Shown here one piece after another: positions 16,868 to 30,964 of a stretch of DNA of 30,964 nucleotides. The notes beneath the pieces were generated by a model. That model searched no databases, was not told the origin of the DNA, and was given only the letters and a program-made list of their open reading frames with translations. The number at the start of each line of letters is the position of its first letter. Within the stretch, counting starts at the first letter, position 1. This DNA is from an uncultured archaeon. GTDB lineage: Archaea > Asgardarchaeota > Lokiarchaeia > Sigyniarchaeales > SOKP01. The stretch spans positions 3,726-34,689 of the forward strand of contig CAZBPC010000028.1 of NCBI GenBank assembly GCA_964493715.1. The letters run 5' to 3'. Position numbers and translations under genes: made by a program.

Positions 16868-18313
16868 TTGCCAATTGGTATTAAAAGCTATGGTGCTTAT
16901 TTACCTAAATACATGCTACCCAGGGAACTCATAGCGAAAGCATGGGACTTTCCGATAGTTCCGGGGACTAAAGCAGTAGCTATGGAGGATGAGGACAGCT
17001 TGACAATGTCAGTAGAAGCAGGACTCGATTGCTTAGAGGGAATTGACCCAAAGACAGTTGATGGAATATTTTTTGCTTCAACAACTCAAGTCTATACTGA
17101 GAAAGATTCAGCCTCTTTAATCGCTACTATTCTCGATATGAGAGGAGATATCATTACCGCAGATTTTACGGACTCAACTAAAGCTGGAACAACAGCTTTA
17201 ACTAGAGCTGTAGATGCGATTAAAGCCAATAAGGATATCAAGAGTATTTTGGTAGTTGCAGCTGATACGAGAAAACCCGAACCCTCAACAATGTGGGAGT
17301 TTGGATTTGCAGATGGTGCTGCCGCTTTACTCATAGCGGATGAAGAAAATATCCCGATCTCGATCGATGATTACTATTCAGTTTCAGCGAACGTGACTGG
17401 ACCATGGAAAAGAGCAGACAAGGATGAGTTTATCAGAACTTTTGAAGTAAAGATGGATGCAAAATTTTACGTGGAAAGCATCACCAAAGTTATGTCTGAA
17501 GTCTTGAAACGTAATAATTTAAACCCTTCCACAGACATCCAAATTGCTGCATATTATTATAATAACCCCAGAATGCATAGCACGATATCCAAGATGATGA
17601 AATTTGGCCAAGGAGTAGCTCAGAACAGCTTGTTCTTTCAAGTAGGTGATATGGGAACGCCAATGCCTTTCATGCTTCTCATTGCTAGCTTGCGAAGACC
17701 TAAACAAGATGACAAGATCATAATGGCCGGTTTTGGAGATGGTGCTGATGCTATTCTCATGCAGGTTCGAGATAAAGATGGTGTCAGGGATATCGGTAAA
17801 GGAAGAATGGGTTTTGTCGGTCACCAAAAATCGATGACCCTTCTAAATAATTACAACAAGTTCATCGAGTTTAAGGAATTGCTTGAGAAGGACAGATATA
17901 CGCGAAAAAGTTCAGCTGTCATTATCTGGCGTGATACTCCTTCAGTTTACAAGTGGTATGGTGTAAAATGCAAAAGTTGTGGAACCGTGCAATATCCTAA
18001 CCTTTCACGAGCTTGTTCCGTATGTAGAGCTGATGATCAATTAGAACCCATTAAACTTGCAAAGAAAGGAGAACTCTTTACATTTACCCTTGATCACTTG
18101 GTTGGTGGAGCTTATCTTAATACGCCCGTCCCACGATGCGTTATAGACCTTGAAGGCGGTGGAAGAGTGTTAGTTAACATGACTGAAATCGAGAACCCTG
18201 AGGAAAATGTCAAGATTGGAATGAAACTCGAGATGACCTTCAGAAAGGAACACGAAGGTGCTGAATTTAAAAATTATTATTGGAAATGTCGACCCGTGAG
18301 GGGGAGACCTTAA
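16868..18313 (+). CDS. HMG-CoA synthase/KASIII-like protein fused to a DUF35 (Zn-ribbon + OB-fold) domain
   Basis: GIKSYGAYLP, DEDSLTM, DGAAALLI, VGDMG, GFGDGADA; C-terminal CKSCG..YP...CSVC and OB fold (FTFT, DLEGGGR, IGMKLEMTFR, YYWK). TTG start after GAGGT. Confidence 0.9.
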   Translation: MPIGIKSYGAYLPKYMLPRELIAKAWDFPIVPGTKAVAMEDEDSLTMSVEAGLDCLEGIDPKTVDGIFFASTTQVYTEKDSASLIATILDMRGDIITADFTDSTKAGTTALTRAVDAIKANKDIKSILVVAADTRKPEPSTMWEFGFADGAAALLIADEENIPISIDDYYSVSANVTGPWKRADKDEFIRTFEVKMDAKFYVESITKVMSEVLKRNNLNPSTDIQIAAYYYNNPRMHSTISKMMKFGQGVAQNSLFFQVGDMGTPMPFMLLIASLRRPKQDDKIIMAGFGDGADAILMQVRDKDGVRDIGKGRMGFVGHQKSMTLLNNYNKFIEFKELLEKDRYTRKSSAVIIWRDTPSVYKWYGVKCKSCGTVQYPNLSRACSVCRADDQLEPIKLAKKGELFTFTLDHLVGGAYLNTPVPRCVIDLEGGGRVLVNMTEIENPEENVKIGMKLEMTFRKEHEGAEFKNYYWKCRPVRGRP

Positions 18314-18314
18314 A

Positions 18315-18320
18315 GGAGGT
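18315..18320 (+). promoter_or_regulatory. Shine-Dalgarno GGAGGT of the thiolase gene
   Basis: GGAGGT 7 nt upstream of ATG 18328 and just after the upstream stop codon, consistent with an operon. Confidence 0.8.
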
Positions 18321-18327
18321 AAAAAAA

Positions 18328-19606
18328 ATGGTTAGACATGGAATTAAAGATAAAGTCGCAATTATCGGTTGCGACATGACAAAATATGGAGAACGATGGG
18401 ATAAGTCACAATACGACCTGCTCTTCGAAGCATTTCAAAGCGCGACGAAGGATGCTGGAATTAAGAAGGATGAGGTGGATGCGAGCTGGGTTGGGATATT
18501 TTACTACTTTACTGGACTATCAGGTGCGATGGTAGAAGATATCCTAAAGTTGGATGGTAAACCCGCTACTCGCGTGGAAAATTACTGCGCTTCGGGCATG
18601 GATGCGTTCCGTAATGCATGCTTTGCCGTTGCTTCTGGTGCATATGACGTTGTCCTCGCCTGTGGAGTGGAGAAACAATATTAACATTTTGTTAATATGC
18701 TCTAGACTCATGGACGAGGGCGGTAGTGGTTTACCCGGATTTACCCAATTCGGACATCCGCTATATCCGACGCCTTCCGCGCCAGCAATGTTTTCGATGG
18801 CGGCCACAAGATGCTTTCACGAGTTCGGATGGACGAAGGAAGATCTTGCCCGAGTCGCGGTAAAAAACCATGATAATGGGTCTCATCATCCAAAAGCACA
18901 TTTTCGAAGCCCAATTTCTTTAGAAGCTGCGATGAAAGCCCCCATGATTGCGGACCCTCTCGGTAGATTCGACTGCTGCGCAAAAATTTAATCACTTAGA
19001 TAAAATTACGCAATGTCAGACGGAGCTGCCGCGTTGATCCTCACCAGACCAGACCTCGCCGAAAGTTATGCCCATGCGGATGACTACGTGCTGGTAAAAG
19101 CCAATGCAATTTCGGCTCACACCAATTTTCCGTGGTACGTGCCACCTGGAGGGCCTGGAGCGGATTTCACTGCATTTCCATCAACGGTAAAAGCGGCGAA
19201 ATACGCCTATCAAGAAGCAGGAATTACCAATCCGCGGAAAGAAATCGATGCTGCAGAAGTCCATGACTGTTTTACGATCACAGTTGATTACATTGCGTAA
19301 TTAACGGTTAATGAACTTATAAACTGTCAGGACCTGCAATTCTGCGACCGAGGGAAAGCAGCTGAAGAACTTAAGAACGGAACGTTCAACTGGGATGGCG
19401 AAACCGCCGTGAATCCATCGGGAGGACTAAAAAGTTTTGGTCATCCTATTGGAAGTACTGGCTGTCGGATGCTCACGGAAATCACCAAGCAAATCCAAGG
19501 ACGTGCTGAGGGAAGGCAAGTGCCCGATGCTAAGATCGGCTTATGCCATAACCTTGGCGGTGCGTTTAGCGTCTGTGCCACGACAATATTAGGTCAACGA
19601 GATTAA
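18328..19606 (+). CDS. SCP2-type thiolase (acetyl-CoA acyltransferase) split by three BHB introns; exons 18328-18674, 18706-18983, 19014-19281, 19312-19606; 395 aa spliced
   Basis: Exons sum to 1188 nt (395 aa + stop). Motifs ENYCASG, GVEK/LMD, KNH.NG..HPKAHF, FDCCA/MSDGAAA, EVHDCFTIT/ELI, NPSGGL..FGHPIG.TG and HNLGG are all intact after splicing. Confidence 0.9.
18675..18705 (+). other. Putative BHB intron 1 (31 nt) in thiolase mRNA
   Basis: ACAATATTAACATTTTGTTAATATGCTCTAG. Central helix GGAG(18669-72)/CTCT(18700-03), bulges AAA and AGA, stem ATATTAAC/GTTAATAT, loop ATTTT. Removal gives GAG AAA CTC ATG (EKLM) and repairs a frameshift. Confidence 0.85.
18984..19013 (+). other. Putative BHB intron 2 (30 nt) in thiolase mRNA
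   Basis: AAATTTAATCACTTAGATAAAATTACGCAA. Central helix GCGC(18978-81)/ACGC(19008-11) with one C-A mismatch, bulges AAA and AAT, stem AATTTaATC/GATaAAATT, loop ACTTA. Removal gives TGC GCA ATG TCA GAC (CAMSD). Confidence 0.78.
19282..19311 (+). other. Putative BHB intron 3 (30 nt) in thiolase mRNA
   Basis: AGTTGATTACATTGCGTAATTAACGGTTAA. Central helix GATC(19276-79)/GGTT(19306-09), bulges ACA and AAT, stem GTTGATTAC/GTAATTAAC, loop ATTGC. Removal gives ATC ACT GAA CTT (HDCFTITEL). Confidence 0.87.
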
Positions 19607-19630
19607 ATTTCTTTTTTTCTATTTTTTTTA
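19607..19630 (+). terminator. Oligo-T archaeal terminator candidate after thiolase
   Basis: ATTTCTTTTTTTCTATTTTTTTTA immediately after the stop codon. Confidence 0.5.
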
Positions 19631-19823
19631 ATGGAATCTACCGGTAAAAATAAGAATTTACGGGCTAAATTCATTGTAAGCTTTATATTCTATACAGAGG
19701 ATAAATATTTATATTTGTTTATATAAGATAAAGTTAAGAAATTCAACTTCAGAGGTAAAAATTATTATTGAACACGAGAAGGAAAACATTGGAAAGCCAA
19801 AAAAAGCGGGTTTAGTTTTAACC

Positions 19824-20174
19824 GTGATTGGGGCGATTTGGATGTTCAGATCATTGGTGTTTATGGTCCCTGACATTTACAAAATTGCTTTAATGGTAGG
19901 GATTATAATTTCAATAATTGGGGGGATCATGGTGATAAAAGGTAAAAAACCTGGAAGGTTAATTTCTTTAATAGGTGGAATTGTAAATCCCATTCTCATT
20001 ATAATGGTTGTATACAACCCTGCTCTTTGGTTCTATGACTTTTGGTACGGTTTACTGAATCACTTCATATTTATGTTTTTGACAATTTATGGATTCGCTA
20101 TTTTTGGGATTTCTTTTTTGTTGTTATTGATCGGTGGGATTCTTAGCTTTAAGATAGAAGAATTACAGATATGA
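19824..20174 (+). CDS. Small multi-pass membrane protein; true start may be TTG 19768 with a frameshift in the A7 run at 19799-19805
   Basis: Hydrophobic 116-aa ORF with repeated I.GGI motifs; SD-like AGAGGT at 19751 precedes an out-of-frame TTG at 19768. Confidence 0.65.
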   Translation: MIGAIWMFRSLVFMVPDIYKIALMVGIIISIIGGIMVIKGKKPGRLISLIGGIVNPILIIMVVYNPALWFYDFWYGLLNHFIFMFLTIYGFAIFGISFLLLLIGGILSFKIEELQI

Positions 20175-20248
20175 TAGATTTAATTTCTAGAGGGACTAAG
20201 ATTTATCCACAAGATTTGGTAAATAAGATTAATTAAATTAATAAAACG

Positions 20249-20485
20249 ATGACCGAAAAGAAAGGTTATGAATTTAAATTATTAAGATTTATTAGTCCAA
20301 TTTGTAAATCAAAAAAAGATCTAAAAATTCCATTTTCTATTATTATTAAGATTCATGAATTAACAACCATTTACATTCCAAAAGGTCTCATATGTGAACA
20401 TCACTTTCAAGCTTTTCTTGATAAAAATTTTGTAATTAGAGGTTACCAGCGAGTTGATTTCACTAATCCTAAGAGTTTAAATTAG
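20249..20485 (+). CDS. Stand-alone, possibly degenerate copy of the Zn-ribbon-like domain found in 490-1401
   Basis: SPICK...ICEHHFQAFLDKNFVIRGYQRVDF versus CPHCN...VCEHSFQIFVDKHFVIRGYQRVDF; the first Cys is replaced by Ser. Confidence 0.6.
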   Translation: MTEKKGYEFKLLRFISPICKSKKDLKIPFSIIIKIHELTTIYIPKGLICEHHFQAFLDKNFVIRGYQRVDFTNPKSLN

Positions 20486-20521
20486 TAGGGGGAGTAGGGG
20501 GGCACTTGCGGAACTACTATT

Positions 20522-21011
20522 ATTATAGTTTTAACTATAGTTAAATTAGATGATGCTTATGGATAGTCTTGGGAAATGTTTTTAAGGAAATTTTAATAGG
20601 TTTTTTTTTATGGGCTGTGAGATGTGTGAATCTGTTTGTTCCTAAATTTTGCATCCAAAAAAGTGTTAACCTCAAAATCAACAAACTATATTAGAAACTA
20701 TAGTATTCATTCATATTTTTATTATTTTGACTTTTTCAAGCAAATCCCTCTGGAAGTGGTGTTAAATTCCAAGAAGCGAGCTTAAAATAGTTTTGTTTTA
20801 ATGAGTATATGAAAGCAATCCAAAAATGAGCGCAATATCCTAGGTTTCCACCAACACGGCACAGGAATATTCTTGTTTAAAGAAGAAATATAGTAATTTC
20901 AGATAATCCAATCTTATATATTTCCTATTAAAATCCAATGGATTCTTAAATAAAGCTCCCCCCACATTTAACATAACCAGCTTTATGTTTAACTATAATT
21001 TAGACTATAGT
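20522..21011. repeat. Three copies of a spaced dyad A(C/T)TATA-N6-ACTATAGT (20522, 20685, 20992); the first includes the 16-bp palindrome TTTAACTATAGTTAAA (20530-20545)
   Basis: ATTATAgttttaACTATAGT, ACTATAttagaaACTATAGT and ACTATAatttagACTATAGT read directly; identical 12-bp period in all three. Confidence 0.7.
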
Positions 21012-21012
21012 T

Positions 21013-21089
21013 TGCCCGATTGGTTTGTGTCATAACCTTGGGGTGCATTCAGCGTGTGCGCCACGACCATATTAGGGCAACGAGATTAA
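21013..21089 (+). pseudogene. Diverged duplicate of the thiolase 3' end (copy of 19521-19606)
   Basis: TGCCCGAT..TGGTTTGTGTCATAACCTTGGGGTGCATTCAGCGTGTGCGCCACGACCATATTAGGGCAACGAGATTAA encodes IGLCHNLG/AFSVCATTILGQRD*. It has an 8-nt and a 1-nt deletion plus mainly third-position changes, and is followed by a similar T-tract. Confidence 0.88.
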
Positions 21090-21143
21090 AAATATTACTT
21101 TTTTTTTATATTTTTTGGGTCTAATTTTATTTTAAGTTCTAAT

Positions 21144-21665
21144 TTATTTTTCTCGCATGTGAGAGATTATCATTCTCGTTAATTCTTCAAAGGATTTTTC
21201 CACATTTTCGCCAGTTTTGCTGGAACATTCAATATAGTTATTCAGACCCAATGAATCTGCAAGCCGTTTTGCTTCGTTGATAGAAACTTCTCTAAATTGT
21301 TCTAAATCTAATTTACCTCCTAGTAATAAGATCGGGAAATTTACGTTAGTTTCATTTATAATTGATAACCAGTCATGAACATGGGAAAAGGAGGAATAAT
21401 CAGTAATATCATACATTAAAATTCCCCCCATTGCTCCTTGGATATATTGGGGAAATAAAGTTCGAAATCGTTCTTCACCACCAAAATCCCAGATCATGAG
21501 ATTAACACGCTTTTCATCGACTTCGATGATTTTAGTTTCAAATTCCACTCCTATAGTCATTTGAGAATCAGGGAGGAATATATCTTTAACAAATCGTTTA
21601 TTTAAAGTTGTCTTACCACAACCTGCGTCACCGAAAATAACGATTTTAAAAATCAAGTCATACAT
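21144..21665 (-). CDS. Rab-like small GTPase (173 aa), paralogue A
   Basis: FKIVIFGDAGCGKTT, TIGVEF, WDFGGEERFR, GGKLD, ECSSKTGENV; start moved to ATG 21665 to match the paralogue. Confidence 0.93.
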   Translation of the reverse strand: MYDLIFKIVIFGDAGCGKTTLNKRFVKDIFLPDSQMTIGVEFETKIIEVDEKRVNLMIWDFGGEERFRTLFPQYIQGAMGGILMYDITDYSSFSHVHDWLSIINETNVNFPILLLGGKLDLEQFREVSINEAKRLADSLGLNNYIECSSKTGENVEKSFEELTRMIISHMREK

Positions 21666-22177
21666 TTTAATCAAATTTAATAATTTTTTCTGGTTATTAA
21701 TCTGAATTACTTGGTAATATATCGCTTCATCAAGAAATCAACGACTAAGTAAAAATTTAATTCTTGATCTCGTGTTTAAATTTTTAAGTGTTCGATCTTG
21801 ATGGGATATAGTAAAAATGGAAAATATCTACAAATATTTAAACTTTCTCCAAATAATTTATCAATATCTAATTTGTATGAGCTAAATTGATGAAAAGTAA
21901 TATTCAAATCAATCTATTTAGAGCAATTTTTCCCTTTAAAGCTAAATTTTAAGAAAAAAAAGGCATGAAATTTTTATTTAGTATAAACAATGATTCCAAC
22001 CACAAAGACAGCTATATTATTAAGAAAAAATTTCCAAACGGAATTATGTCTTTTGGATATGCTGCTCATATTGATATAGCAATATCAGTTATTTTACCAA
22101 GATTGAGAACAACCAATCAGATTTCATAATTCAATTATTAAAAGCAAAAAAAAAGAATTTAACAAATAGCCATTTGA

Positions 22178-23059
22178 TCACTCGATTGGCCATTCAAGTA
22201 GTGATAGAATCAAATTTTTGTGAGATAATCCTCCCCTAGTAAGTGTGCCAACAAAATTTTCTCGTGTAAACATCTTTTTTAAGACATAACTTAAAACTTG
22301 CTTATCACGTAGTCCTTTTTCATTAGCTTCCTTTTGAAATCGATGAGCTTTCAGATGTAGTGAATCAATCTCATCCATTCTATCTTTTAAAAACGATCTG
22401 TCTTTAAATACTCCTTTCCCAGAAGTAAAAAGAAGTAAATTTTCCATTCCTTTGGTAAGATCATGTAATTTTTTAATTGATTGAAATATAAGGAATATAT
22501 CTTCGGGGATGTCCGTATCCTTACCAAATATCATTTGATATTTTGGCATGACTGCATCGGTGATGAATGCCCACTGTTGTTTTCGTTCAATTAAACTAAC
22601 AATTTCAGGTGCATGTCCGGGAGTATCTACTATCTCAAAAATGTATTTACCTGACTTGGAACAAATCAGATCTTGTAACAATTCAGCTTGAAAGGGTTGA
22701 AAATCTAACCCCCAAGTCATTTGACGATAATCGGGATAATTCTTTTTTTTTTTCAACAATGGAATAGCCAATTTACTAGCATATACGGGAATTTTAAATT
22801 CCTCTTGGAGCATGCGACCTCCCCCGCAATGATCTTCATGGTTATGAGTAATTACACATTTTGCAACCATGTTTTCGGAATCAAGAGATTTGATGAATTC
22901 ACGCAAATCATCTACTCCTCCGGGAGCTCCTGCGTCAATTAATAACCCATCAATTAAAAATACGGAAGTCCAAAAGGGTTGTGGCATCAATTTATTATCT
23001 GAAGACCATTTCCACTCTAATATCTCGTTATTACAATGATAAACTTTTTGAATAACCAT
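22178..23059 (-). CDS. MBL-fold metallo-hydrolase
   Basis: LIDAG, THNHEDHCGG, TPGHA, FITD. Confidence 0.88.
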   Translation of the reverse strand: MVIQKVYHCNNEILEWKWSSDNKLMPQPFWTSVFLIDGLLIDAGAPGGVDDLREFIKSLDSENMVAKCVITHNHEDHCGGGRMLQEEFKIPVYASKLAIPLLKKKKNYPDYRQMTWGLDFQPFQAELLQDLICSKSGKYIFEIVDTPGHAPEIVSLIERKQQWAFITDAVMPKYQMIFGKDTDIPEDIFLIFQSIKKLHDLTKGMENLLLFTSGKGVFKDRSFLKDRMDEIDSLHLKAHRFQKEANEKGLRDKQVLSYVLKKMFTRENFVGTLTRGGLSHKNLILSLLEWPIE

Positions 23060-23204
23060 AATAGTTTCATTTGCGATAAAAATAAAAAGTGTAGATTTAA
23101 CGTTGCCTAGTTATTATGAACTTCAATAATTCAAACTTTAAATTTTTTGGCTCTTAATTTTATCATAAAAATCCATCAATTGGAGAATAGAAGGAGAAAG
23201 AAAA

Positions 23205-23306
23205 TTGAGTAAAACTGAATTTAAAGGCAATTTATTGAGTCCTTTACCCGTTATACTGGTAGGAGCAAATGTGAAAAATTAACCAAATTATTTACTTATC
23301 GGATAA
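23205..23306 (+). pseudogene. Flavin reductase/flavoredoxin N-terminal remnant
   Basis: After AAGGAG (23191), TTG start gives MSKTEFKGNLLSPLPVILVGANVKN*PNYLLIG*, matching the P.PV.LVGA.V.GKPN motif, with a premature TAA at 23280 and truncation. Confidence 0.65.
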
Positions 23307-23414
23307 CTATAACACTCGGAGACAGCATGGACCATTTATTCTTATATATTAAAAGATTTTCAGCAAAATACTATTATAGGATTCTTACTTCTGTAGATTT
23401 ATCTCTACAATTTT

Positions 23415-23936
23415 TCAGGACTCTCTCATTTTATTAACCATAATTCTCGTTAAATCTTCAAACGATTTTTCCACATTTTCACCCGTTTTGCTGGAACATT
23501 CAACATATTTATTTAAACCCATAGAGTTTGCAAGTTGCTTTCCCTCGTTAAAAGAAATTTCTCTCTTTTCATTTAAATCTATTTTACCTCCTAGTAATAA
23601 GATGGGAAAGCGCTCTCTTTCGCCATTTATAACTGATAACCAATCAATGGTATGAGAAAAAGAAGAGTAATCCGTGATATCACACATTAAAATTCCCCCC
23701 ATGGCTCCATGAATATATTGGGGAAAGATAAATCGAAATCGTTCTTCACCTCCAAAGTCCCAAATCATTAACTTAACTCGCATATCATCGATCTTGATGA
23801 TTTTAGTTTCAAATTCCACTCCTATAGTCATTTGAGAATCCGGTATAAATAAGTCGGTCACAAAACGTTTAGTTAAAGTAGTCTTACCTGAACCTGCGTC
23901 GCCAAAAATGACGGTTTTGAAAATTGCGTCATACAT
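23415..23936 (-). CDS. Rab-like small GTPase (173 aa), paralogue B
   Basis: FKTVIFGDAGSGKTT, TIGVEF, WDFGGEERFR, GGKID, ECSSKTGENV. Confidence 0.93.
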   Translation of the reverse strand: MYDAIFKTVIFGDAGSGKTTLTKRFVTDLFIPDSQMTIGVEFETKIIKIDDMRVKLMIWDFGGEERFRFIFPQYIHGAMGGILMCDITDYSSFSHTIDWLSVINGERERFPILLLGGKIDLNEKREISFNEGKQLANSMGLNKYVECSSKTGENVEKSFEDLTRIMVNKMRES

Positions 23937-24249
23937 TTTAATCTAATTTAATTTTTTTTCTGGTTATTAATCTGATATATGTGAAAATATAACTTTTTAG
24001 CCACTCAACTAATACTCAAGTAAGAATTTCTTTCTATATCTTTCTTTCTGAATAGCCCATCGAGCAAAGATAATATGAAACTTGTGATATTTAAATTTTT
24101 CCATAATAATTTACCAATATCAAAATTGTATGAAGTAAATGGATAGAAAATGAGAGATCAATCAGTACTTTTAGTTAATTTCATTTTTATCCTATGAATT
24201 ATAGGAAAATAATATTATTACTGAATATTAGATAAAATTTTTTTTATTT

Positions 24250-24768
24250 TTATCTTCTTAAATCAATAATTCTACGAGTTAACATGCTAATCGCATCATC
24301 AACTATAACAATATCAGTTGGAGACGCTTCAATATAGATTCCTCCCTCATTTTCTGCAAATCCACGAGCCTTTTCTCTAAGATGTGTTTTGTCGACTTCT
24401 TTAAGCTTATCAATATTATTTCCAATCAATAAAAAAGGTCTAAAACCATTAACCTGTATTATTTCTGTAAAAAAATTTCTAACTTCAGCAAATGTTTCCT
24501 CCTTGGTCAAATCGAAAATTAAAATTATTCCTGCAGCTCCTTTGTAAAACGTGCTACGAATGAGCTCAAATCGTTTTTGACTTCCAATGTCCCATAGCGA
24601 AAGATTAGCAATTTCACTGAGTTGGAACTCAACATCTTTAGTTAAAATGTCGACTCCAACTGTCAACTTGTAGTTTGCAGCAAACCGATTTTTAACGATT
24701 TGTTGGACCAACCGATTTTTAACTAAATCTCTTCCAATTAGTATTATTTTAAGTTTAAAATGAGACAT
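24250..24768 (-). CDS. Rab-like protein with degenerate nucleotide-binding motifs (pseudo-GTPase candidate)
   Basis: Likely start MSHFKLKIILIG at 24768. Retains YKLTVGVDILTK, WDIGSQKRF, FYKGAAG and FDLT, but G1 is GRDLVKNR, G4 is NNID and G5 is EASP. Confidence 0.85.
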   Translation of the reverse strand: MSHFKLKIILIGRDLVKNRLVQQIVKNRFAANYKLTVGVDILTKDVEFQLSEIANLSLWDIGSQKRFELIRSTFYKGAAGIILIFDLTKEETFAEVRNFFTEIIQVNGFRPFLLIGNNIDKLKEVDKTHLREKARGFAENEGGIYIEASPTDIVIVDDAISMLTRRIIDLRR

Positions 24769-24980
24769 GATTACAGATTGAATAACCCAAGTAATGATAA
24801 GAAAATCTAATCTTATAAATAATTTCATTAAATTAATAGCATTAATATCTTAGCATCAACTTCAACTAATTCAAATGAGGTTTGATACTTCGAACATTAA
24901 GACTATAAATATGCTTAGCCCTATTTATGCATAAATTAATTTGTAACAATGCCAATCATAAAAATTATTGTGGTTAAAAA

Positions 24981-25820
24981 ATGGATGCTAAAAAATTAGA
25001 TTTTGAATCAATATATTTTGATCTCTATGAATTAAGTCCAGGGATATTCGCAGCAATTTCAGCAGAAAAAATATTCACTTCAAATGCGGGATTTTTTGAT
25101 CTTGGTAATTATCTAATTATCTTTGATACACTCATGGACCCATATTCCACTATTGATCTCATTAAAGCGTCAAAACAATTTACAAATAAGGATCCTTCTT
25201 TTCTAATAAACAGTCATCATCACATAGATCATTTATTTGGGAATAGAAAGTTTCCCATGAATATTCCTATTATTTGCAGCAGTGAAGCATTGAAAGAATC
25301 ACAAAATTACCTAAATACGCGGTTTAGAGATTTTCAGAATAGAGCTCCTGAAGAACTTAAAAAAACAGAAGAGGTCTTATTGAATGAAAAGAATCCCGAT
25401 AAAATTTTAGAGTTGAAAAATGATATAAATACATGGAATGAAATTAGGGACCCCGATTTTGAATTAAGACAACCAGATTTTATAATTGATGATTCTATTA
25501 CTATAATTGGTACCAAAAACCAAGTTCAAGTAATACATATAGGAGCCGCTCACACTAAAGGGGATATAATCGCTCTTTTCGAAAAAGAAAAAATTTGTTT
25601 TATGGGAGACTTATTATTCGAGCAAACTGATCCTAATTGGGCTAGTGGTGCACCTGGATCACCAGTTCCAGCGAACCCTGAACGGCTTCGCGATACTTTA
25701 AACGATTACGCTGAGAAGGATATTGACATTTATATCCCGGGGCATGGTAAAATATGCACTAAAAAAATTCTTCGGGATAATGCAATATTTTACAATGAGT
25801 ATTTTATAAAAAAAAAATAA
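24981..25820 (+). CDS. MBL-fold metallo-hydrolase (cyclase-like subgroup)
   Basis: SNAG, FDT, NSHHHIDHLFGN, AHTKGD, GDLLF, PGHG. Confidence 0.9.
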   Translation: MDAKKLDFESIYFDLYELSPGIFAAISAEKIFTSNAGFFDLGNYLIIFDTLMDPYSTIDLIKASKQFTNKDPSFLINSHHHIDHLFGNRKFPMNIPIICSSEALKESQNYLNTRFRDFQNRAPEELKKTEEVLLNEKNPDKILELKNDINTWNEIRDPDFELRQPDFIIDDSITIIGTKNQVQVIHIGAAHTKGDIIALFEKEKICFMGDLLFEQTDPNWASGAPGSPVPANPERLRDTLNDYAEKDIDIYIPGHGKICTKKILRDNAIFYNEYFIKKK

Positions 25821-25975
25821 GCCTTCGAAATTATTAATATCTCTTTTTTCTTATATGGTAATATTTGTACGAAAACGGAACTTTTAGAAAATGCTGATGA
25901 TAATATCAAAAGCTATAAATATTAAATTGATTCTATTTAGACTATTAGATTTTTTTCCCAAAAAGGTGAATTAAT

Positions 25976-26521
25976 TTGAATAAAGGAAGAAATATGTTAG
26001 GGGTTATATCCCTCATCATTGCATTATCAGGGGTCGCGGTGGGGGCTTTTTCATTCATTTCCATGAATAATTATATCAACGAAACGAATGCATATGTTCA
26101 GCCAATGGCAAGTGTGTATTATGATGATGTGTCTATATATTCAATACCTGATCAATCATCCCAAATATTCAACTATAATCAAATAAGTTATGATAATCGT
26201 GATGCATTTAATCTCACATCTGATTCCTATACTATTCATGAACCGGGAATTTATCAAGTAACAGCGCAATATAGTATAGAAGCATATGATGGGGATTTTT
26301 TTATGATCCAACTTCTTAGTAATAGTACTATAGCTTGCTCCAGATCATTTACAGCAAGCACATATACTAATACATTTGGGGTTGGTCTAACGAATAATTT
26401 TAAATTTGTAGAAGGTGAATCTCTTAGTATACAAATATACCAATATAATGGTGCACACACAACAAGAAATATATTCCCTGGAGGGGCACACAACTTTTTT
26501 ACGATTGCTAAACTAGCCTAA
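25976..26521 (+). CDS. Membrane-anchored C1q/TNF-like beta-sandwich domain protein
   Basis: N-terminal TM helix, then FNYNQISYDNRDAFNLTSDSYTIHEPGIYQVTAQ, FVEGESLSIQIY and NFFTIAKL, matching the C1q-like pattern. Confidence 0.65.
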   Translation: MNKGRNMLGVISLIIALSGVAVGAFSFISMNNYINETNAYVQPMASVYYDDVSIYSIPDQSSQIFNYNQISYDNRDAFNLTSDSYTIHEPGIYQVTAQYSIEAYDGDFFMIQLLSNSTIACSRSFTASTYTNTFGVGLTNNFKFVEGESLSIQIYQYNGAHTTRNIFPGGAHNFFTIAKLA

Positions 26522-26736
26522 GATTACTGAAGAATACTTAAGAATAAATCCATTTTCTTTTCTTTTCATTTTCTTTTTTAAAATAGCTCTAATAAATGAG
26601 GTAAGGTAAATAAAAATAAATATTAAAAATTATTTGAGTATATTCACTATTATAAAAAATTTTCATTCTTAAACTTAATCCTTGATAAAGTAAAATATAT
26701 CAAATCCTTACAGCAATAGAGATAATTAATAATTTA

Positions 26737-28140
26737 TTACTTCTTATTATATTTCATCCCACATTGTGGACAAAAGGTGGCTTCTTCATTGATTTCTAAT
26801 CCACAAAAAGAACATTTAATTATTTGAGGTTCAAGTGGTATTAATTCTTCTAGTTGTTCTTCTGGTATATTCTCTCTCACTTCCTTTTCTGGTATGACTT
26901 CCAGCTTCCTCTCCCCGTAATCAAATTCTCTTTTTGAAATTTCTGTTAATTGAAAAGCTGTTCTTGATTTTCTTGGATATTTTATCTCGGTTCTATTAAT
27001 AGATTTCCTTCTTCTTGTAATAAGCATCCCAGCTATGGACATTGTAATGGCAATGAGAATCACTATTATTATTATTATTATTATAATTTCAATAGGAAAT
27101 TGGTTTCCATTAATGGGAAGAACTTCTTGAATATCCTCTCCATTACCGTTAAAAAAGTTGTTTAAAACGTTATTGTATCGAGAATAATAGAGATAAATAC
27201 CAACATGATTAGTTGTAATTGTGTTCATTACGATTATATTATTATTACTTCTCCATAAATATAATCCCGCAAAACTGTTATAACTTGCGTTATTTCCCGA
27301 AACGGTATTAACATTGCTATTCCATAAAAATATTCCATTCCAACCGTTATGATTTGCGATATTTCCTACAACTTTAATATCTTGACTATCGGATATGTCT
27401 ATTCCATTGTCACGATTATAGGTAACATTGTTGTTCATTATAGTATTGTTATTACTTGAAGAGGATAAATAAATCCCTCTCCAATCATTATTAAAAGCAG
27501 AGTTATTCAAAATTTTGTTATTGTTGCTTAAACCTAAATATATCCCATCCGAATTCTCTTTTAATGTGTTTTCCGAAAGAATATTATCATGACTCCCTAC
27601 TAAAAACAAACCAAACTCAACATTATTGTTTACTATGTTTCCAACAATGGTAATGTTTTGACTTTGGTATAAACCGATTCCAACCCCATAATTAGTTGAA
27701 CAGTCGTTATTTATTAAATGACCATTTAGAACATTATTTAATTTGATTCCTGCATTATATAGTCCTGGACCGGAATTATAAAGCGTACAGTTTTCAATCT
27801 TAAAGTACACGTCGGAATTTTCAATCACGATGCAACTTCCTGAGTCTCCAGCATCTATGACCAAATCCACTATGACGTAAGGTTCAATATAGGTGCCATT
27901 CCCCGTACAAATTCCCAGAGCTTTGGCAGCAGTCCAATTGTTATCAATATGAATTTTTCCTGATGTTGCTGAGATTTGTAGATTTTTATTATCTAACTGA
28001 ATTTCATCGTTATATTCTGAACTTTTATCGCTGTTTCTCGTATTAAAATTGAGATTATTATTAATAATTATTGGTGATAAAGCGAAAAGAATTCCTAATG
28101 CCATCAAAAAAATAATTCTTGTTTTAGTTTTTAATTTCAT
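26737..28140 (-). CDS. Surface protein with parallel beta-helix (NosD/pectin-lyase-like) repeats, C-terminal TM helix and cytoplasmic zinc ribbon
   Basis: Signal/TM at MKLKTK (28140), GNGTYIEPYVI, repeated GIYL..SNNN.I..N, a poly-Ile TM, and CSFCG...FCPQCG. Confidence 0.88.
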   Translation of the reverse strand: MKLKTKTRIIFLMALGILFALSPIIINNNLNFNTRNSDKSSEYNDEIQLDNKNLQISATSGKIHIDNNWTAAKALGICTGNGTYIEPYVIVDLVIDAGDSGSCIVIENSDVYFKIENCTLYNSGPGLYNAGIKLNNVLNGHLINNDCSTNYGVGIGLYQSQNITIVGNIVNNNVEFGLFLVGSHDNILSENTLKENSDGIYLGLSNNNKILNNSAFNNDWRGIYLSSSSNNNTIMNNNVTYNRDNGIDISDSQDIKVVGNIANHNGWNGIFLWNSNVNTVSGNNASYNSFAGLYLWRSNNNIIVMNTITTNHVGIYLYYSRYNNVLNNFFNGNGEDIQEVLPINGNQFPIEIIIIIIIIVILIAITMSIAGMLITRRRKSINRTEIKYPRKSRTAFQLTEISKREFDYGERKLEVIPEKEVRENIPEEQLEELIPLEPQIIKCSFCGLEINEEATFCPQCGMKYNKK

Positions 28141-28572
28141 GCTGTTTTCTCCCATAATTGATAAGTCGTTAATAATTAGGTTACTTTCCTTCATGTACAT
28201 TTCTGTCAATTAGGTTTAGCGGGAAATAACAAATATTAATTTTATTTTCTCATTTCATCAATGCTCTCAAATATTATGATTTGTCCTCTAAACCAGTCTA
28301 ATGTATAATTATCTTTATTTCTGTTGATGAATGCAATAAACCATTCAATCATTTAATCTTTGTTCATACTTTTATCTTGAGATTTTTTTTAATTCTTTTA
28401 TTACACTTAGGACATACATTAATAATCTTAGGATTAATTGGATTTGTTATTTTTGACGTTACGAATATAATCTGACAATTATAGAAAAAAAAACCATGAG
28501 TCTTCATTATTAATAACAATTCTTTTTATTACAGTCATAAATTATTTAATTCCTAATTAATTTCAATTACTT

Positions 28573-29427
28573 ATGAGTAGTGATGGATTTAATCGGTTTA
28601 AAGGCAATGTAAATACTGATAGAATCAAATATATTGCCGATCCTCAGCTGAGAAACATTGTGAACGTTTCTATTGCCTTAGCACGACCTTTATTGGTAAA
28701 GGGAGAGCCTGGTACTGGAAAAACGCTGTTATCTCATGCAATAGCAGAATCATTGGGAAAAAGACTCATTATATGGAATGTAAAGAGCACTACAGAAGCA
28801 ATAGATGGGTGTTACATGTATGATACTGTCCAAAGACTAAACGATAGCCGATTTGGGTGTGAGGATCGAAATGTCGATAATATTAAAGATTATATAACTC
28901 TTGGGCCTTTAGGTGAAGCTTTTGATTCTGATGAGCAAGTCGTTCTTCTTATTGATGAAATAGATAAAGCGGATATCGAGTTTCCAAATGATCTTCTGCA
29001 AGAGTTAGACGTTATGGAATTTTATGTTAAAGAGACAAAAGAATTTGTAAAAGCTAAAACGCGACCAATCGTTATAATCACATCAAACAACGAAAAAGAG
29101 CTTCCTGATGCATTCTTGCGTAGATGCGTGTTCCATTGGATTGAATTTCCCATGAAAGAATTCATGACAGAAATTTGTAATCTCCATTATCCAAATTTAA
29201 AGCAAAATTTATTGGATCAATGTTTAAAACACTTCTATGCCCTTAGAGCTATAACTAAATTAAGAAAAATGCCTTCGACTTCAGAACTACTCGATTGGAT
29301 TGGGGTATTGCTTAAAAGTGGAATTTCAATCGAAGAATTTAGAAAAGAAATACCCTTTTTAGGCGTGTTATTAAAAAAAGAGAAAGATATAGAAATCGCT
29401 CTCGAGAAAATCAAATTTCCGACATGA
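28573..29427 (+). CDS. MoxR-family AAA+ ATPase (CoxD-like)
   Basis: PLLVKGEPGTGKT, LLIDEIDKADIEFPNDLL, ITSNNEKELPDAFLRRC, PSTSELLDW. Confidence 0.95.
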   Translation: MSSDGFNRFKGNVNTDRIKYIADPQLRNIVNVSIALARPLLVKGEPGTGKTLLSHAIAESLGKRLIIWNVKSTTEAIDGCYMYDTVQRLNDSRFGCEDRNVDNIKDYITLGPLGEAFDSDEQVVLLIDEIDKADIEFPNDLLQELDVMEFYVKETKEFVKAKTRPIVIITSNNEKELPDAFLRRCVFHWIEFPMKEFMTEICNLHYPNLKQNLLDQCLKHFYALRAITKLRKMPSTSELLDWIGVLLKSGISIEEFRKEIPFLGVLLKKEKDIEIALEKIKFPT

Positions 29428-29748
29428 TATATTCCTCTCTTGCTCATTTCAATACTTCCTTTATACTAGATTCTCTTTTGTATTTTCAAGAAGGGGTTAA
29501 TTTATAAGCAATTAATTTCATATCATTCAGAAATCAGTTCTCTCATATTTGGATCTTTTAATTCAGGGATTTTGTAGAATAGAAAAAAATATCAAAAAAA
29601 ATTAAAAATGAACCCCCAACTCTAAAAAAACCATTAACGTAGAGAATGAATTTGTATATTTCATCTACTCTTATTTTGCGTGAATCGACAGAATGATATA
29701 AAATAAAATCATAATTAATTAATTTAGGCGTTCACTCTAATATCATGG

Positions 29749-30964
29749 ATGTTTGTCGAATACTTTTACTATCTCAAAGATAGATTGCCCGTATCCCTAA
29801 CGGAATACATGACCCTAATCGAAGCATTAGACAAGGGACTCATCCATAACATGGTAGAATTCTATTACATCTCTCGCTCACTCCTCTGCAAGAATGAACA
29901 CCATTTTGACATCTATGACATCGCTTTTGCGAACTTTTTTAAAGACGCATCGCTCAAATTTCCCGATGAGATTAAACAACAAATCTGGGATTGGCTAGAT
30001 AAAAAACTCGACCCACAAGAATTACCCGATAATTTCCAGCAATTCATGAGTGAAATCTTCGACCTTGAAGAACTCCAAAAACAACTCGATGAATTGCTCA
30101 AAAGACAAGACGAAGACCATGATGGCGGCGATCACTGGATCGGAACTCAAGGCGAATCGCGGTTTGGCCATTCTGGACAAAATCCAATGGGCATGAAAAT
30201 CGGTGGGTCGGCTGGGATGCGAATGGCTATCCAAATCGCCCAAAAAAGAATCTTTGCCGATTACAGAAAAGATGTCGTCTTAGATACCCGCCAAATCAAG
30301 GTCGCACTCAAGCGCCTCAAAAAACTTGAAGAAATCGGCAAGCAAGATGAATTAAACATCGATAAAACCATCGATCAAACGGCTAAGAATGGCGGAGATA
30401 TTGATCTAATTTTCGAAAAAAAGAGAAAGAATAACGTGAAGCTGATATTGCTAATGGATGTCGGTGGCTCCATGACTCCTTATGCTCACCTCGTAAACCT
30501 CCTATTTTCTGCCGCAAACAACATGTCGCACTGGAAAAAGTTTGAGCACTTTTATTTTCACAACTGCCTTTATGAGACTCTCTATTTCAACGCACAGAGA
30601 AATCCGGAAGAATCCATTCCATTTGAAGAATTTTTGAAAAAATATAACAGTAAATATAAAGTAGTCGTGGTGGGCGACGCCGCAATAATTTAATCGAATT
30701 CCGATTAAGTTGTGAGGGCAAGTTGGGAGCTCACCGAAAGATATGGGAGTATCTACTATTATCATCGGAACGAATTGCCCGGTGCGTATTATATACGCGA
30801 ACTTGCGAACCATTTCAAGAATAATGTCGTATGGCTTAACCCAGAAATCATACGGTTGGAGTGGGTGCCGTGGACGCGGAAGATAATTTCAAGCATCATC
30901 CCGATGTTCCACCTTACAGTGGAAGGGATTGAAGAAGCCATGGATTTTCTACGGAAGGGCGGTA
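29749..30964 (+). CDS. VWA-domain (CoxE-like) partner of MoxR, split by one BHB intron; exons 29749-30686 and 30717->30964 (runs off the window end)
   Basis: HDGGDHWIGT.G.S.FGH.G, LLMDVGGSM and YFHNCLY. After intron removal the frame reads VGDAAMASWELTERYGSIYY...VWLNPE...MFHLTVEGIEEAMDFLRKGG, open to the window end. Confidence 0.9.
30687..30716 (+). other. Putative BHB intron 4 (30 nt) in VWA mRNA
   Basis: AATTTAATCGAATTCCGATTAAGTTGTGAG. Central helix CGCA(30681-84)/TGTG(30711-14), bulges ATA and AGG, 9-bp stem ATTTAATCG/CGATTAAGT, loop AATTC, outer GC/GC pairs. Removal gives GCA ATG GCA (GDAAMA). Confidence 0.88.

Follow-up and report, generated by a model that had tools for sequence, protein, structure and literature searches.

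A putative 30-nt BHB intron in a CoxE-like VWA gene of a Loki-type Asgard archaeon

How can a conserved archaeal protein be made from a gene whose reading frame is closed by two stop codons? The question arises at the end of the 30,964-nt stretch of DNA analyzed here (the window), which derives from a Loki-type Asgard archaeon. An ORF on the forward strand (29749–30693) runs into a TAA stop at 30691–30693, and the sequence and the ORF list bear out the C terminus (...GDAAII) that the initial annotation had given for it. Downstream, a second ORF (30712–30963) lies in the same frame as the first and is still open where the window stops at the end of its contig. A further TAA is found in frame at 30706–30708, so that two stop codons fall inside the interruption, which the initial annotation had read as an intron bounded by a BHB motif.

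Homologs Define an Insert of Exactly 30 Bases

The upstream part of the gene, referred to as exon 1 (29749–30686, forward strand), comprises 313 codons plus the AT of a Met codon. Its product is a CoxE-like VWA protein by its match to Pfam VWA_CoxE (34.5 bits, cut-off 26.4, E = 1.8e-8), its homologs carry PF05762, and it is colinear with homologs of 410 aa. The neighboring gene upstream (28573–29427, forward strand) encodes an AAA+ ATPase that Pfam assigns to AAA and AAA_5 only. The MoxR label that had been attached to it was not confirmed because the best NCBIfam row (MadB-family ATPase, 108 bits) lies far below its cut-off of 475.

For the homolog search, the VWA frame was read through with each TAA translated as X. 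The search returned 5,562 proteins with E ≤ 0.001 among 8,000 scored candidates, and the best 120 of these were examined. They are Asgard VWA proteins of 409–475 aa, named by their sources as "Promethearchaeota", Loki-, Thor-, Heimdall-, or Odinarchaeota. In the alignment, all 120 show a 10-residue gap opposite II-X-SNSD-X-VVR. All 120 also have a Met at the insert site, which stands within GDAAM in 114 of them and is followed by AS[WYF]E. Since the 10 codons are missing from 120 of 120 homologs, the gene contains exactly 30 extra bases, which split the Met codon as AT|...|G.

The insert, a putative BHB mini-intron of 30 nt, thus occupies positions 30687–30716 (forward strand); it is absent from the best 120 homologs, and its excision restores ATG. 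Shifting the 30-nt deletion by one base in either direction gives ATA or AGG, which leaves 30687–30716 as the sole excision that restores the ATG. Exon 2 (30717–30964, forward strand) supplies the G of the Met codon and 82 codons within the window. Another contig (C118) overlaps the end of the window's contig by 55 nt and adds 15 codons and a stop, bringing exon 2 to 97 codons, the same number as in the orthologs.

These results bear on several statements of the initial annotation. The conserved Met, which it had expected for this family and proposed to check by alignment with homologs, is real and invariant in the best 120. Its expectation of more than 80 further in-frame codons is borne out by the 82 codons in the window and the 97 obtained with contig C118. 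It had also named what would count against an intron, namely homologs that lack the Met or carry a natural 10-aa insertion at this site; neither was found among the best 120.

The Insert Carries a BHB Motif Whose Predicted Cuts Match These Boundaries

The RNA around the insert can be arranged as a BHB motif in the order h-H-bulge-h'...h'-H'-bulge-h, in which the cut rule places cleavage after the second base of each bulge. In the central helix H, the exon 1 bases CGCA (30681–30684) pair with the intron bases UGUG of strand H' (30711–30714) at four of four positions, one of them a G-U pair. The 5' bulge AU|A (30685–30687) would be cut after 30686, and the 3' bulge AG|G (30715–30717) after 30716. 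Within the intron, the inner hairpin h' (30688–30710) consists of 9 bp (30688–30696 with 30702–30710) and a 5-nt loop, AAUUC. The outer helix h joins the two exons by 2 bp, GC at 30679–30680 with GC at 30718–30719, a length that Marck and Grosjean are said to have found sufficient in 2003. All of these elements lie on the forward strand. The cuts set by the BHB rule coincide exactly with the excision defined by homology, and the earlier claim that the ATG is made from AT|G only at BHB-predicted cuts holds, as cuts after 30686 and 30716 alone rebuild it.

Among 7.33 million genome positions, this precise build (H 4/4, h' 9/9, loop of 5) was counted 59 times, or 17 times if h has at least 2 bp, and the chance of finding it at a prespecified site is about 8e-6, roughly 1 in 100,000. 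A looser BHB motif gave 1,084 hits in the window. Loose BHB motifs are frequent in a genome of 31% G+C, and therefore the motif by itself proves little. The case for a putative VWA intron rests on the coincidence of the motif with the boundaries defined by homology, together with the covariation described below.

Predicted folding energies do not favor the motif in this genome. The minimum free energy (MFE) fold of positions 30660–30745 (86 nt) has −30.7 kcal/mol (z = −4.3) and forms a 12-bp helix with a 3 × 3 internal loop; it is not the BHB fold. When the same 86 nt were constrained to the BHB, the energy was −23.4 kcal/mol, 7.3 kcal/mol worse than the MFE. In terms of the folding model, this preference is a weakness of the proposed motif, though the BHB family is not defined by thermodynamic preference.

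When up to three mismatches were allowed, the 30-mer matched only itself within the whole window. The initial annotation had stated that the same 30-nt BHB element occurs in a thiolase gene; this stands for the architecture, which is alike, and fails for the sequence. Rfam gave no match in the window at gathering thresholds, and ARAGORN found no tRNA there.

Relatives Share the Insert and Conserve the Sequence Behind It

An insert at the same site was found in two of 15 orthologous loci from 40 relatives, the other 13 being without it. A search across the family, in which 95 of 133 genomes gave a match, raised the count to seven of 30 loci, leaving 23 without the insert. The seven carriers belong to two genera. 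The insert measures 30 nt in the genome of the window (G000) and in the relatives G004, G018, and G139, 33 nt in G136 and G141, and 29 nt in G079, which belongs to the other genus. When proteins were searched across the phylum, 134 of 398 genomes gave a match, and internal stops were found only in these seven carriers among the matches listed. A stop that had seemed to lie inside the gene of one further genome, G266, was rejected as an intron; it is the natural stop of that gene.

The split of the Met codon as AT|...|G is kept in all seven carriers. Exon 1 is open over 319–385 codons in the carriers, except in G004, where the contig breaks it off at 115; exon 2 is open over 97. The 29-nt insert of G079 does not allow in-frame read-through, and the frame shifts unless the insert is removed. 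Among the seven carriers, exon 2 shows 81–97% protein identity at 70–84% DNA identity, with dN of 0.03–0.15; of the 21 pairs, 18 have a saturated dS and the other three a dN/dS of 0.02–0.04. Exon 2 is under strong purifying selection, and therefore the region behind the stops is translated and selected. It also contains the only copy of the conserved SWELTERYG-type motif in six-frame translations of G000.

Bases of the Exon and the Insert Covary

The central helix H pairs at four of four positions in six of the seven carriers; in G079 it pairs at three of four, with an H mismatch plus a bulged base in h'. G000 and G004 have a weak outer helix h of only 2 bp. In G136 and G141 this helix has 3 bp, and it reaches 5 bp in G018, G139, and G079.

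Covariation was assessed in a MAFFT alignment of seven rows and 17 pairs, from which the fourth H pair was excluded as misaligned in the 33- and 29-nt forms. In this alignment, 86.6% of the cells are paired, as opposed to 31–42% with partners slid by one to three columns. Both sides change in seven of the 17 pairs (shuffled mean 3.5; three of 500 shuffles reach seven). The covariation score of 0.423 compares with 0.207 in shuffled alignments, and none of 500 shuffles reached 0.423; these figures are to be read as support and not as a probability, because the seven rows are related and represent about four intron types. In h', five of nine pairs change on both sides among the seven genomes. The first H pair is C-G in two genomes, U-A in three, and A-U in two. 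On the 5' side, this pair uses the third position of an Ala codon, and therefore a silent site of the exon is matched by the intron. The fourth H pair, read by hand from the sequences, is A-U, U-G, or G-C.

Further Protein Genes of the Genome Are Interrupted by Similar Elements

In counting the VWA insert as an independent fourth intron, the initial annotation had assumed three in a thiolase gene of the window. All three interruptions turn out to fit BHB introns as well, with cuts that agree with intronless orthologs. Thiolase intron 1 (18675–18705, forward strand) has 31 nt, pairs in H as GGAG:CUCU (4/4), and has one bulged A in h'. Orthologs without it read E-K-L-M-D, and it is common to G016. 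Intron 2 (18984–19013, forward strand; 30 nt) pairs in H at three of four positions and is absent from orthologs that read C-C-A-M-S-D; it is common to G007, where the hairpin differs in sequence yet is paired. Intron 3 (19282–19311, forward strand; 30 nt) has H 4/4 and an h' of 9 bp, is common to G022, and is missing from orthologs that read T-I-T-E-L-I. A fourth thiolase site carries an insert in G131 and G016 alone. Of the 24 sequencing runs listed for this DNA, none is recorded as RNA. Positions 18000–30964 were compared with the DNA contigs of four runs (X2–X5), with matching pieces listed up to 30563; an intronless allele of thiolase site 1 was present in contigs of runs X2 and X4, which come from two other samples. 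No contig joining 30686 to 30717 was listed; contigs drop rare variants, and this comparison weighs neither for nor against the VWA intron.

Similar interruptions were found elsewhere in the genome. The rtcB gene is split into Pfam positions 1–47 and 48–426 by a gap of 29 nt with H 4/4 and an h' of 9 bp. An insert of the same build splits NAD synthase (Pfam 3–143 and 144–242). Further inserts of this build split a second thiolase (Thiolase_C_1, 1–48 and 51–143), a class-I aminoacyl-tRNA synthetase (tRNA-synt_1g, 4–46 and 48–135), an AMP-binding enzyme (Pfam 9–208 and 223–312), and ribosomal protein S8 (Pfam 2–43 and 93–126). No other S8 locus was found in G000, a genome rated 100% complete. 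Altogether, at least 10 interruptions in seven protein-coding genes have support beyond the motif, namely the one in the VWA gene and at least nine more. The eleven elements tabulated measure 29–31 nt, and their bulges are mostly A[U/A/C]|A on the 5' side and mostly A[A/G]|N on the 3' side.

Eighteen candidates were picked by hand and 10 of them tested with Pfam, which placed both halves in one family for five. Candidate C145 received weak Pfam support (Thiolase_N, 19.7 bits in one half only). Candidate C83 was rejected as an intron, being the junction of two different genes, while C70, C3, and C18 stay candidates. On inspection by eye, C68 resembles a carA/carB junction. Genome-wide, a simple BHB rule combined with ORF joining gave 230 and 363 candidates, and 179 in a reversed-sequence control. 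The census by motif plus ORF joining showed no enrichment (126 found vs. 116 expected by chance). The only enriched class was the perfect 30-nt build, of which four of 59 occurrences join ORFs where about 0.6 would be expected. The genome census is not exhaustive because candidates from the simple rule are mostly noise.

The Genome Encodes a Splicing Machinery and tRNA Introns of the Same Build

Two genes of the genome match Pfam tRNA_int_endo (EndA) with scores of 102 and 68 bits; their open frames span 208 and 206 aa, and they lie around 38084–38308 of contig C5 and around 18731–18976 of contig C58. The single RtcB scores 484 bits, its gene being split as described. The two EndA genes encode paralogous subunits, and therefore the enzyme probably has the (alpha-beta)2 form, an assembly that is predicted here. 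For Asgard archaea, the accessible text of PMC5829648 describes an (alpha-beta)2 EndA with an L1 loop insert that is linked to broad specificity.

ARAGORN identified 27 tRNA genes in the genome, 12 of them with introns, several of which measure 29–30 nt. Among tRNA introns with a normally positioned anticodon, the cut rule placed the cut at 37/38 in five of six, with H of at least 3/4. This agrees with the location of the first two anticodon bases in the BHB central helix, as given in the consulted part of PMC4090602. On contig C24, the intron of the tRNA-Gly(GCC) gene measures 30 nt and has H 4/4, an h of 7 bp, and an h' of 9 bp, and a 29-nt tRNA-Thr intron has the loop ACUUA, identical to that of thiolase intron 2. 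The tRNA intron load of the genome fits the published picture of Asgard tRNA genes, which are heavily interrupted and intron-rich according to the accessible portions of PMC11291895 and of the preprint 10.64898/2026.10.13.758758.

We propose, with a probability that we put at about 85%, that positions 30687–30716 are a BHB intron in a protein-coding pre-mRNA that is cut by EndA and whose exons are joined by RtcB. In the folded pre-mRNA, the end of exon 1 and the intron's 3' end would together form the 4 bp of H, two 3-nt bulges would lie beside this helix, and h' within the intron and the short exon-exon helix h would close the motif. EndA would then cut each bulge behind its second base. Ligation by RtcB would produce the AUG of the invariant Met and remove both in-frame stops, and the excised 30-mer would probably be circularized. 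An mRNA left unspliced would yield a protein of 314 aa without the conserved C terminus of 96 residues. On the sequence evidence, the VWA element appears to be one of a family of 29–33-nt introns that, in this genome, are located in tRNA genes and in at least 10 places in protein genes.

Alternative Explanations

The insert might instead mark a dead gene, in which a hairpin-forming DNA element was inserted and is never removed, so that the 314-aa product or none is made. Two in-frame stops inside the insert and orthologs that mostly lack it (13 of 15; 23 of 30) would be expected in this case. We regard it as very unlikely, since exon 2 stays open over 97 codons in seven of seven carriers with dN/dS of 0.02–0.04 where computable, the AT|...|G split is kept in all of them, exon and intron bases covary, and inserts of the same kind split the only S8 locus, RtcB, and NadE. 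Alternatively, the stops could be passed by programmed translational bypassing, with the ribosome hopping from the Ala codon before the insert to the Ala codon after it. The two GCA codons of G000 (30682–30684 before the gap, 30718–30720 after it) are identical, and a stable hairpin and a stop codon follow shortly downstream of the take-off site. The VWA gene would resemble T4 gene 60 in that its coding sequence is interrupted by a short gap that is not translated and that contains both a hairpin and a stop. Bypassing in T4 gene 60 uses matched take-off and landing codons, has a stop right after take-off, and leaves no trace in the RNA. In the VWA gene, by contrast, only two of seven carriers (G000 and G079) have the same codon for take-off and landing, the stop lies two codons past the take-off codon and is not adjacent to it, and the codon of the invariant residue exists only after excision. 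The Met present in every one of the best 120 homologs would be missing from the product of hopping, and hopping leaves unexplained both the conservation of AT before and G after the gap and the covariation of the intron 3' end with exon 1. The missing Met and the rarity of matched Ala codons speak for the disfavoring of ribosomal hopping in the initial annotation, and we too consider such a mechanism highly improbable.

Removal of the insert by a route other than EndA and RtcB, either another form of RNA processing or programmed DNA excision, is possible and unnecessary, and we give it a small chance. It would be compatible with the MFE fold of G000, which is not a BHB. Against it, the cuts fall at BHB-rule positions here and at the three thiolase sites, and tRNA introns of equal size and build are present in the same genome; moreover, self-splicing introns are far longer than 30 nt. 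That the insert is an artefact of assembly or sequencing in this metagenome-assembled genome might be suspected from the contig end 248 nt downstream of it, inside the gene. Inserts at the identical site in six other genomes have diverged in sequence and length, and we treat an artefact as excluded for practical purposes, because six independent genomes carry the insert. The BHB intron in the pre-mRNA is the reading that we retain.

Comparison with Known Systems

An intron of this kind is already known from cbf5, and the VWA intron would be a further case, in a genome with numerous putative introns of this type. The cbf5 pre-mRNA of Crenarchaeota (Desulfurococcales and Sulfolobales) contains a BHB intron (Watanabe 2002; Yoshinari 2006; Yokobori 2009, PMC2738675), and the accessible part of PMC2738675 states that, as of 2009, no gene besides cbf5 had been confirmed to have a BHB pre-mRNA intron. 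For pre-mRNA substrates, the available text of a 2018 paper (PMC5829648) and the reference list of a 2025 endonuclease paper cite only cbf5 work. In the portions consulted, PMC11291895 and the preprint 10.64898/2026.10.13.758758 report Asgard introns in tRNA only. No description of BHB introns in Asgard protein-coding genes was found in the full texts searched, which include neither most subscription journals nor supplements.

The VWA insert shares with the cbf5 intron its short length, its BHB boundaries within an archaeal coding sequence, and a lineage-specific presence among close relatives. Removal of the cbf5 intron is attributed, in the text available to us, to a hetero-oligomeric tRNA-splicing endonuclease and a ligase, and we make the same attribution for the VWA intron; whereas splicing of cbf5 has been confirmed experimentally, we infer that of the VWA gene. 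Other differences are the Asgard (Loki-type) phylum, the CoxE-like VWA gene as host, the presence of at least 10 putative introns in this one genome instead of a single case, and the very patchy distribution.

Compared with archaeal tRNA introns of the hBHBh' type, the VWA insert has the same motif, cut rule, and size class. It differs in that its host RNA is an mRNA, of which an unspliced copy would yield a truncated protein. The exon half of the VWA motif consists of codons, and therefore synonymous sites carry structure.

The eukaryotic HAC1/XBP1 system, as covered in PMC4090602, likewise relies on proteins alone for tRNA-type splicing of an mRNA, whose frame or C terminus is altered, with joining by tRNA ligase or RtcB, and by RtcB-family ligation in animals. 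It differs in using Ire1 and not EndA, in having paired stem-loops and not a BHB, and in belonging to a regulated response to stress. This likeness does not imply that the introns are homologous.

Removal of archaeal protein-gene introns by the tRNA-splicing machinery has so far been confirmed for cbf5 only; the same mechanism would be needed for a conserved VWA gene and for at least nine further protein-gene interruptions in this genome. Eukaryotes are thought to have arisen from within the Asgard phylum. Gene callers split or truncate such genes, the VWA gene appearing as a 314-aa protein and an orphan ORF, and therefore Asgard proteomes and supposedly "missing" markers are misannotated. Expression of the interrupted genes would depend on EndA and RtcB, in the case of rtcB as a self-referential loop. 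The locus also offers a testable case of mRNA splicing alongside coupled transcription and translation.

Patchy Distribution of the Insert

A maximum-likelihood tree was computed from 40 VWA orthologs, G004 being excluded as too short. The six remaining carriers do not cluster on this tree. Six changes are needed to explain them, at least five of which are forced by starred branches, and none of 500 label shuffles requires more than the six observed. Taken at the sequence level, the patchy distribution at the VWA site suggests that the insert was frequently lost with precision and/or gained anew at one site, and recombination between copies could also blur the VWA tree. For the 29–33-nt intron family as a whole, the patchy distribution suggests repeated loss and/or gain. 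We think it likely that Loki-type Asgards harbor a mobile family of 29–33-nt BHB introns that has colonized tRNA genes and many protein genes, including essential ones (S8, the class-I aminoacyl-tRNA synthetase, and NAD synthase) and rtcB, with at least five gains or losses at the VWA site for six carriers. Carriers of the VWA insert occur among both the 410-aa and the 474-aa forms of the protein.

Predicted introns in protein and tRNA genes of the source genome

The three putative introns of the thiolase gene (window positions 18675-18705, 18984-19013 and 19282-19311) fit both the bulge-helix-bulge (BHB) cut rule, with cuts after the second base of each bulge, and an alignment to intronless orthologues. 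Inserts of the same build, 29-31 nt in length, were found elsewhere in the source genome at C26:4048-4077, C39:8747-8777, C44:26026-26056, C19:23102-23132 and C120:4197-4228 (contig:positions). They interrupt the genes for ribosomal protein S8, an NAD synthase, a class-I aminoacyl-tRNA synthetase, an AMP-binding enzyme and a second thiolase. For all five inserts, the two halves match one Pfam family across the break. The matches abut at the break in the NAD synthase and the class-I aminoacyl-tRNA synthetase and are separated by a gap there in ribosomal protein S8, for which the interrupted locus is the only one in the genome.

A 29-nt element built like the other BHB inserts of this genome (central helix H 4/4, inner intron hairpin h' 9 bp) also interrupts the gene for the RNA ligase RtcB (locus L095; contig C2, 12134-12162, + strand). 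It divides the match to the Pfam RtcB family into positions 1-47 and positions 48-426. Exons cut at a BHB are expected to be joined by RtcB, and since rtcB is interrupted by an element of this type, the ligase would be needed for producing its own mRNA.

ARAGORN identified only 27 tRNA genes in the whole genome, which is rated 100% complete, and 12 of them carry introns. The 30-nt intron of tRNA-Gly(GCC) matches the mRNA introns in its build, and an ACUUA loop is common to a 29-nt tRNA-Thr intron and the second thiolase intron. The loci concerned are C24 22458-22559, which holds tRNA-Gly(GCC), and C4 59401-59501. Judged by these similarities, the tRNA and mRNA introns of this genome look like a single family.

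Predicted intron content among relatives

Each thiolase intron is shared with one relative, a different one in every case (genomes G016, G007 and G022), and an additional 29-nt insert near window position 18609 is present in G131 and G016 and absent from the source genome. The intron content of one gene therefore depends on the species.

The six intron-bearing orthologues of the CoxE-like VWA gene (window 29749 to past the end, putative intron 30687-30716) are dispersed over the gene tree and include both the 410-aa and the 474-aa form. For each carrier the nearest neighbor is intronless, and the tree requires at least five gains or losses of the intron. The protein encoded 3' of the intron (exon 2) in G004 is 97% identical to those of G136 and G141, while its intron is similar to that of the source genome, which hints at recombination among VWA gene copies.

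Contig end and strain-level variation

Contig C28, from which the window is taken, terminates within the VWA gene, with a 55-nt overlap to contig C118 (window 30910-30964). About 4.7 kb further on, C118 contains a stretch 82% identical to the last 176 nt of the VWA gene, from which the conserved motif of the start of exon 2 is absent. This stretch could have arisen by partial duplication and have caused the break in the assembly.

In DNA contigs of other samples, the region separating the thiolase gene from the small GTPase gene shows two strain-level indels relative to the window: 1514 nt are skipped at window 19607-21122 (one run), and 230 nt at 21954-22185 are exchanged for 28 other letters (three runs). 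Directly upstream of the thiolase, overlapping its start, lies a 481-aa ORF (16868-18313), which by eye resembles an HMG-CoA-synthase-like protein fused with a zinc-ribbon/OB (DUF35-like) tail.
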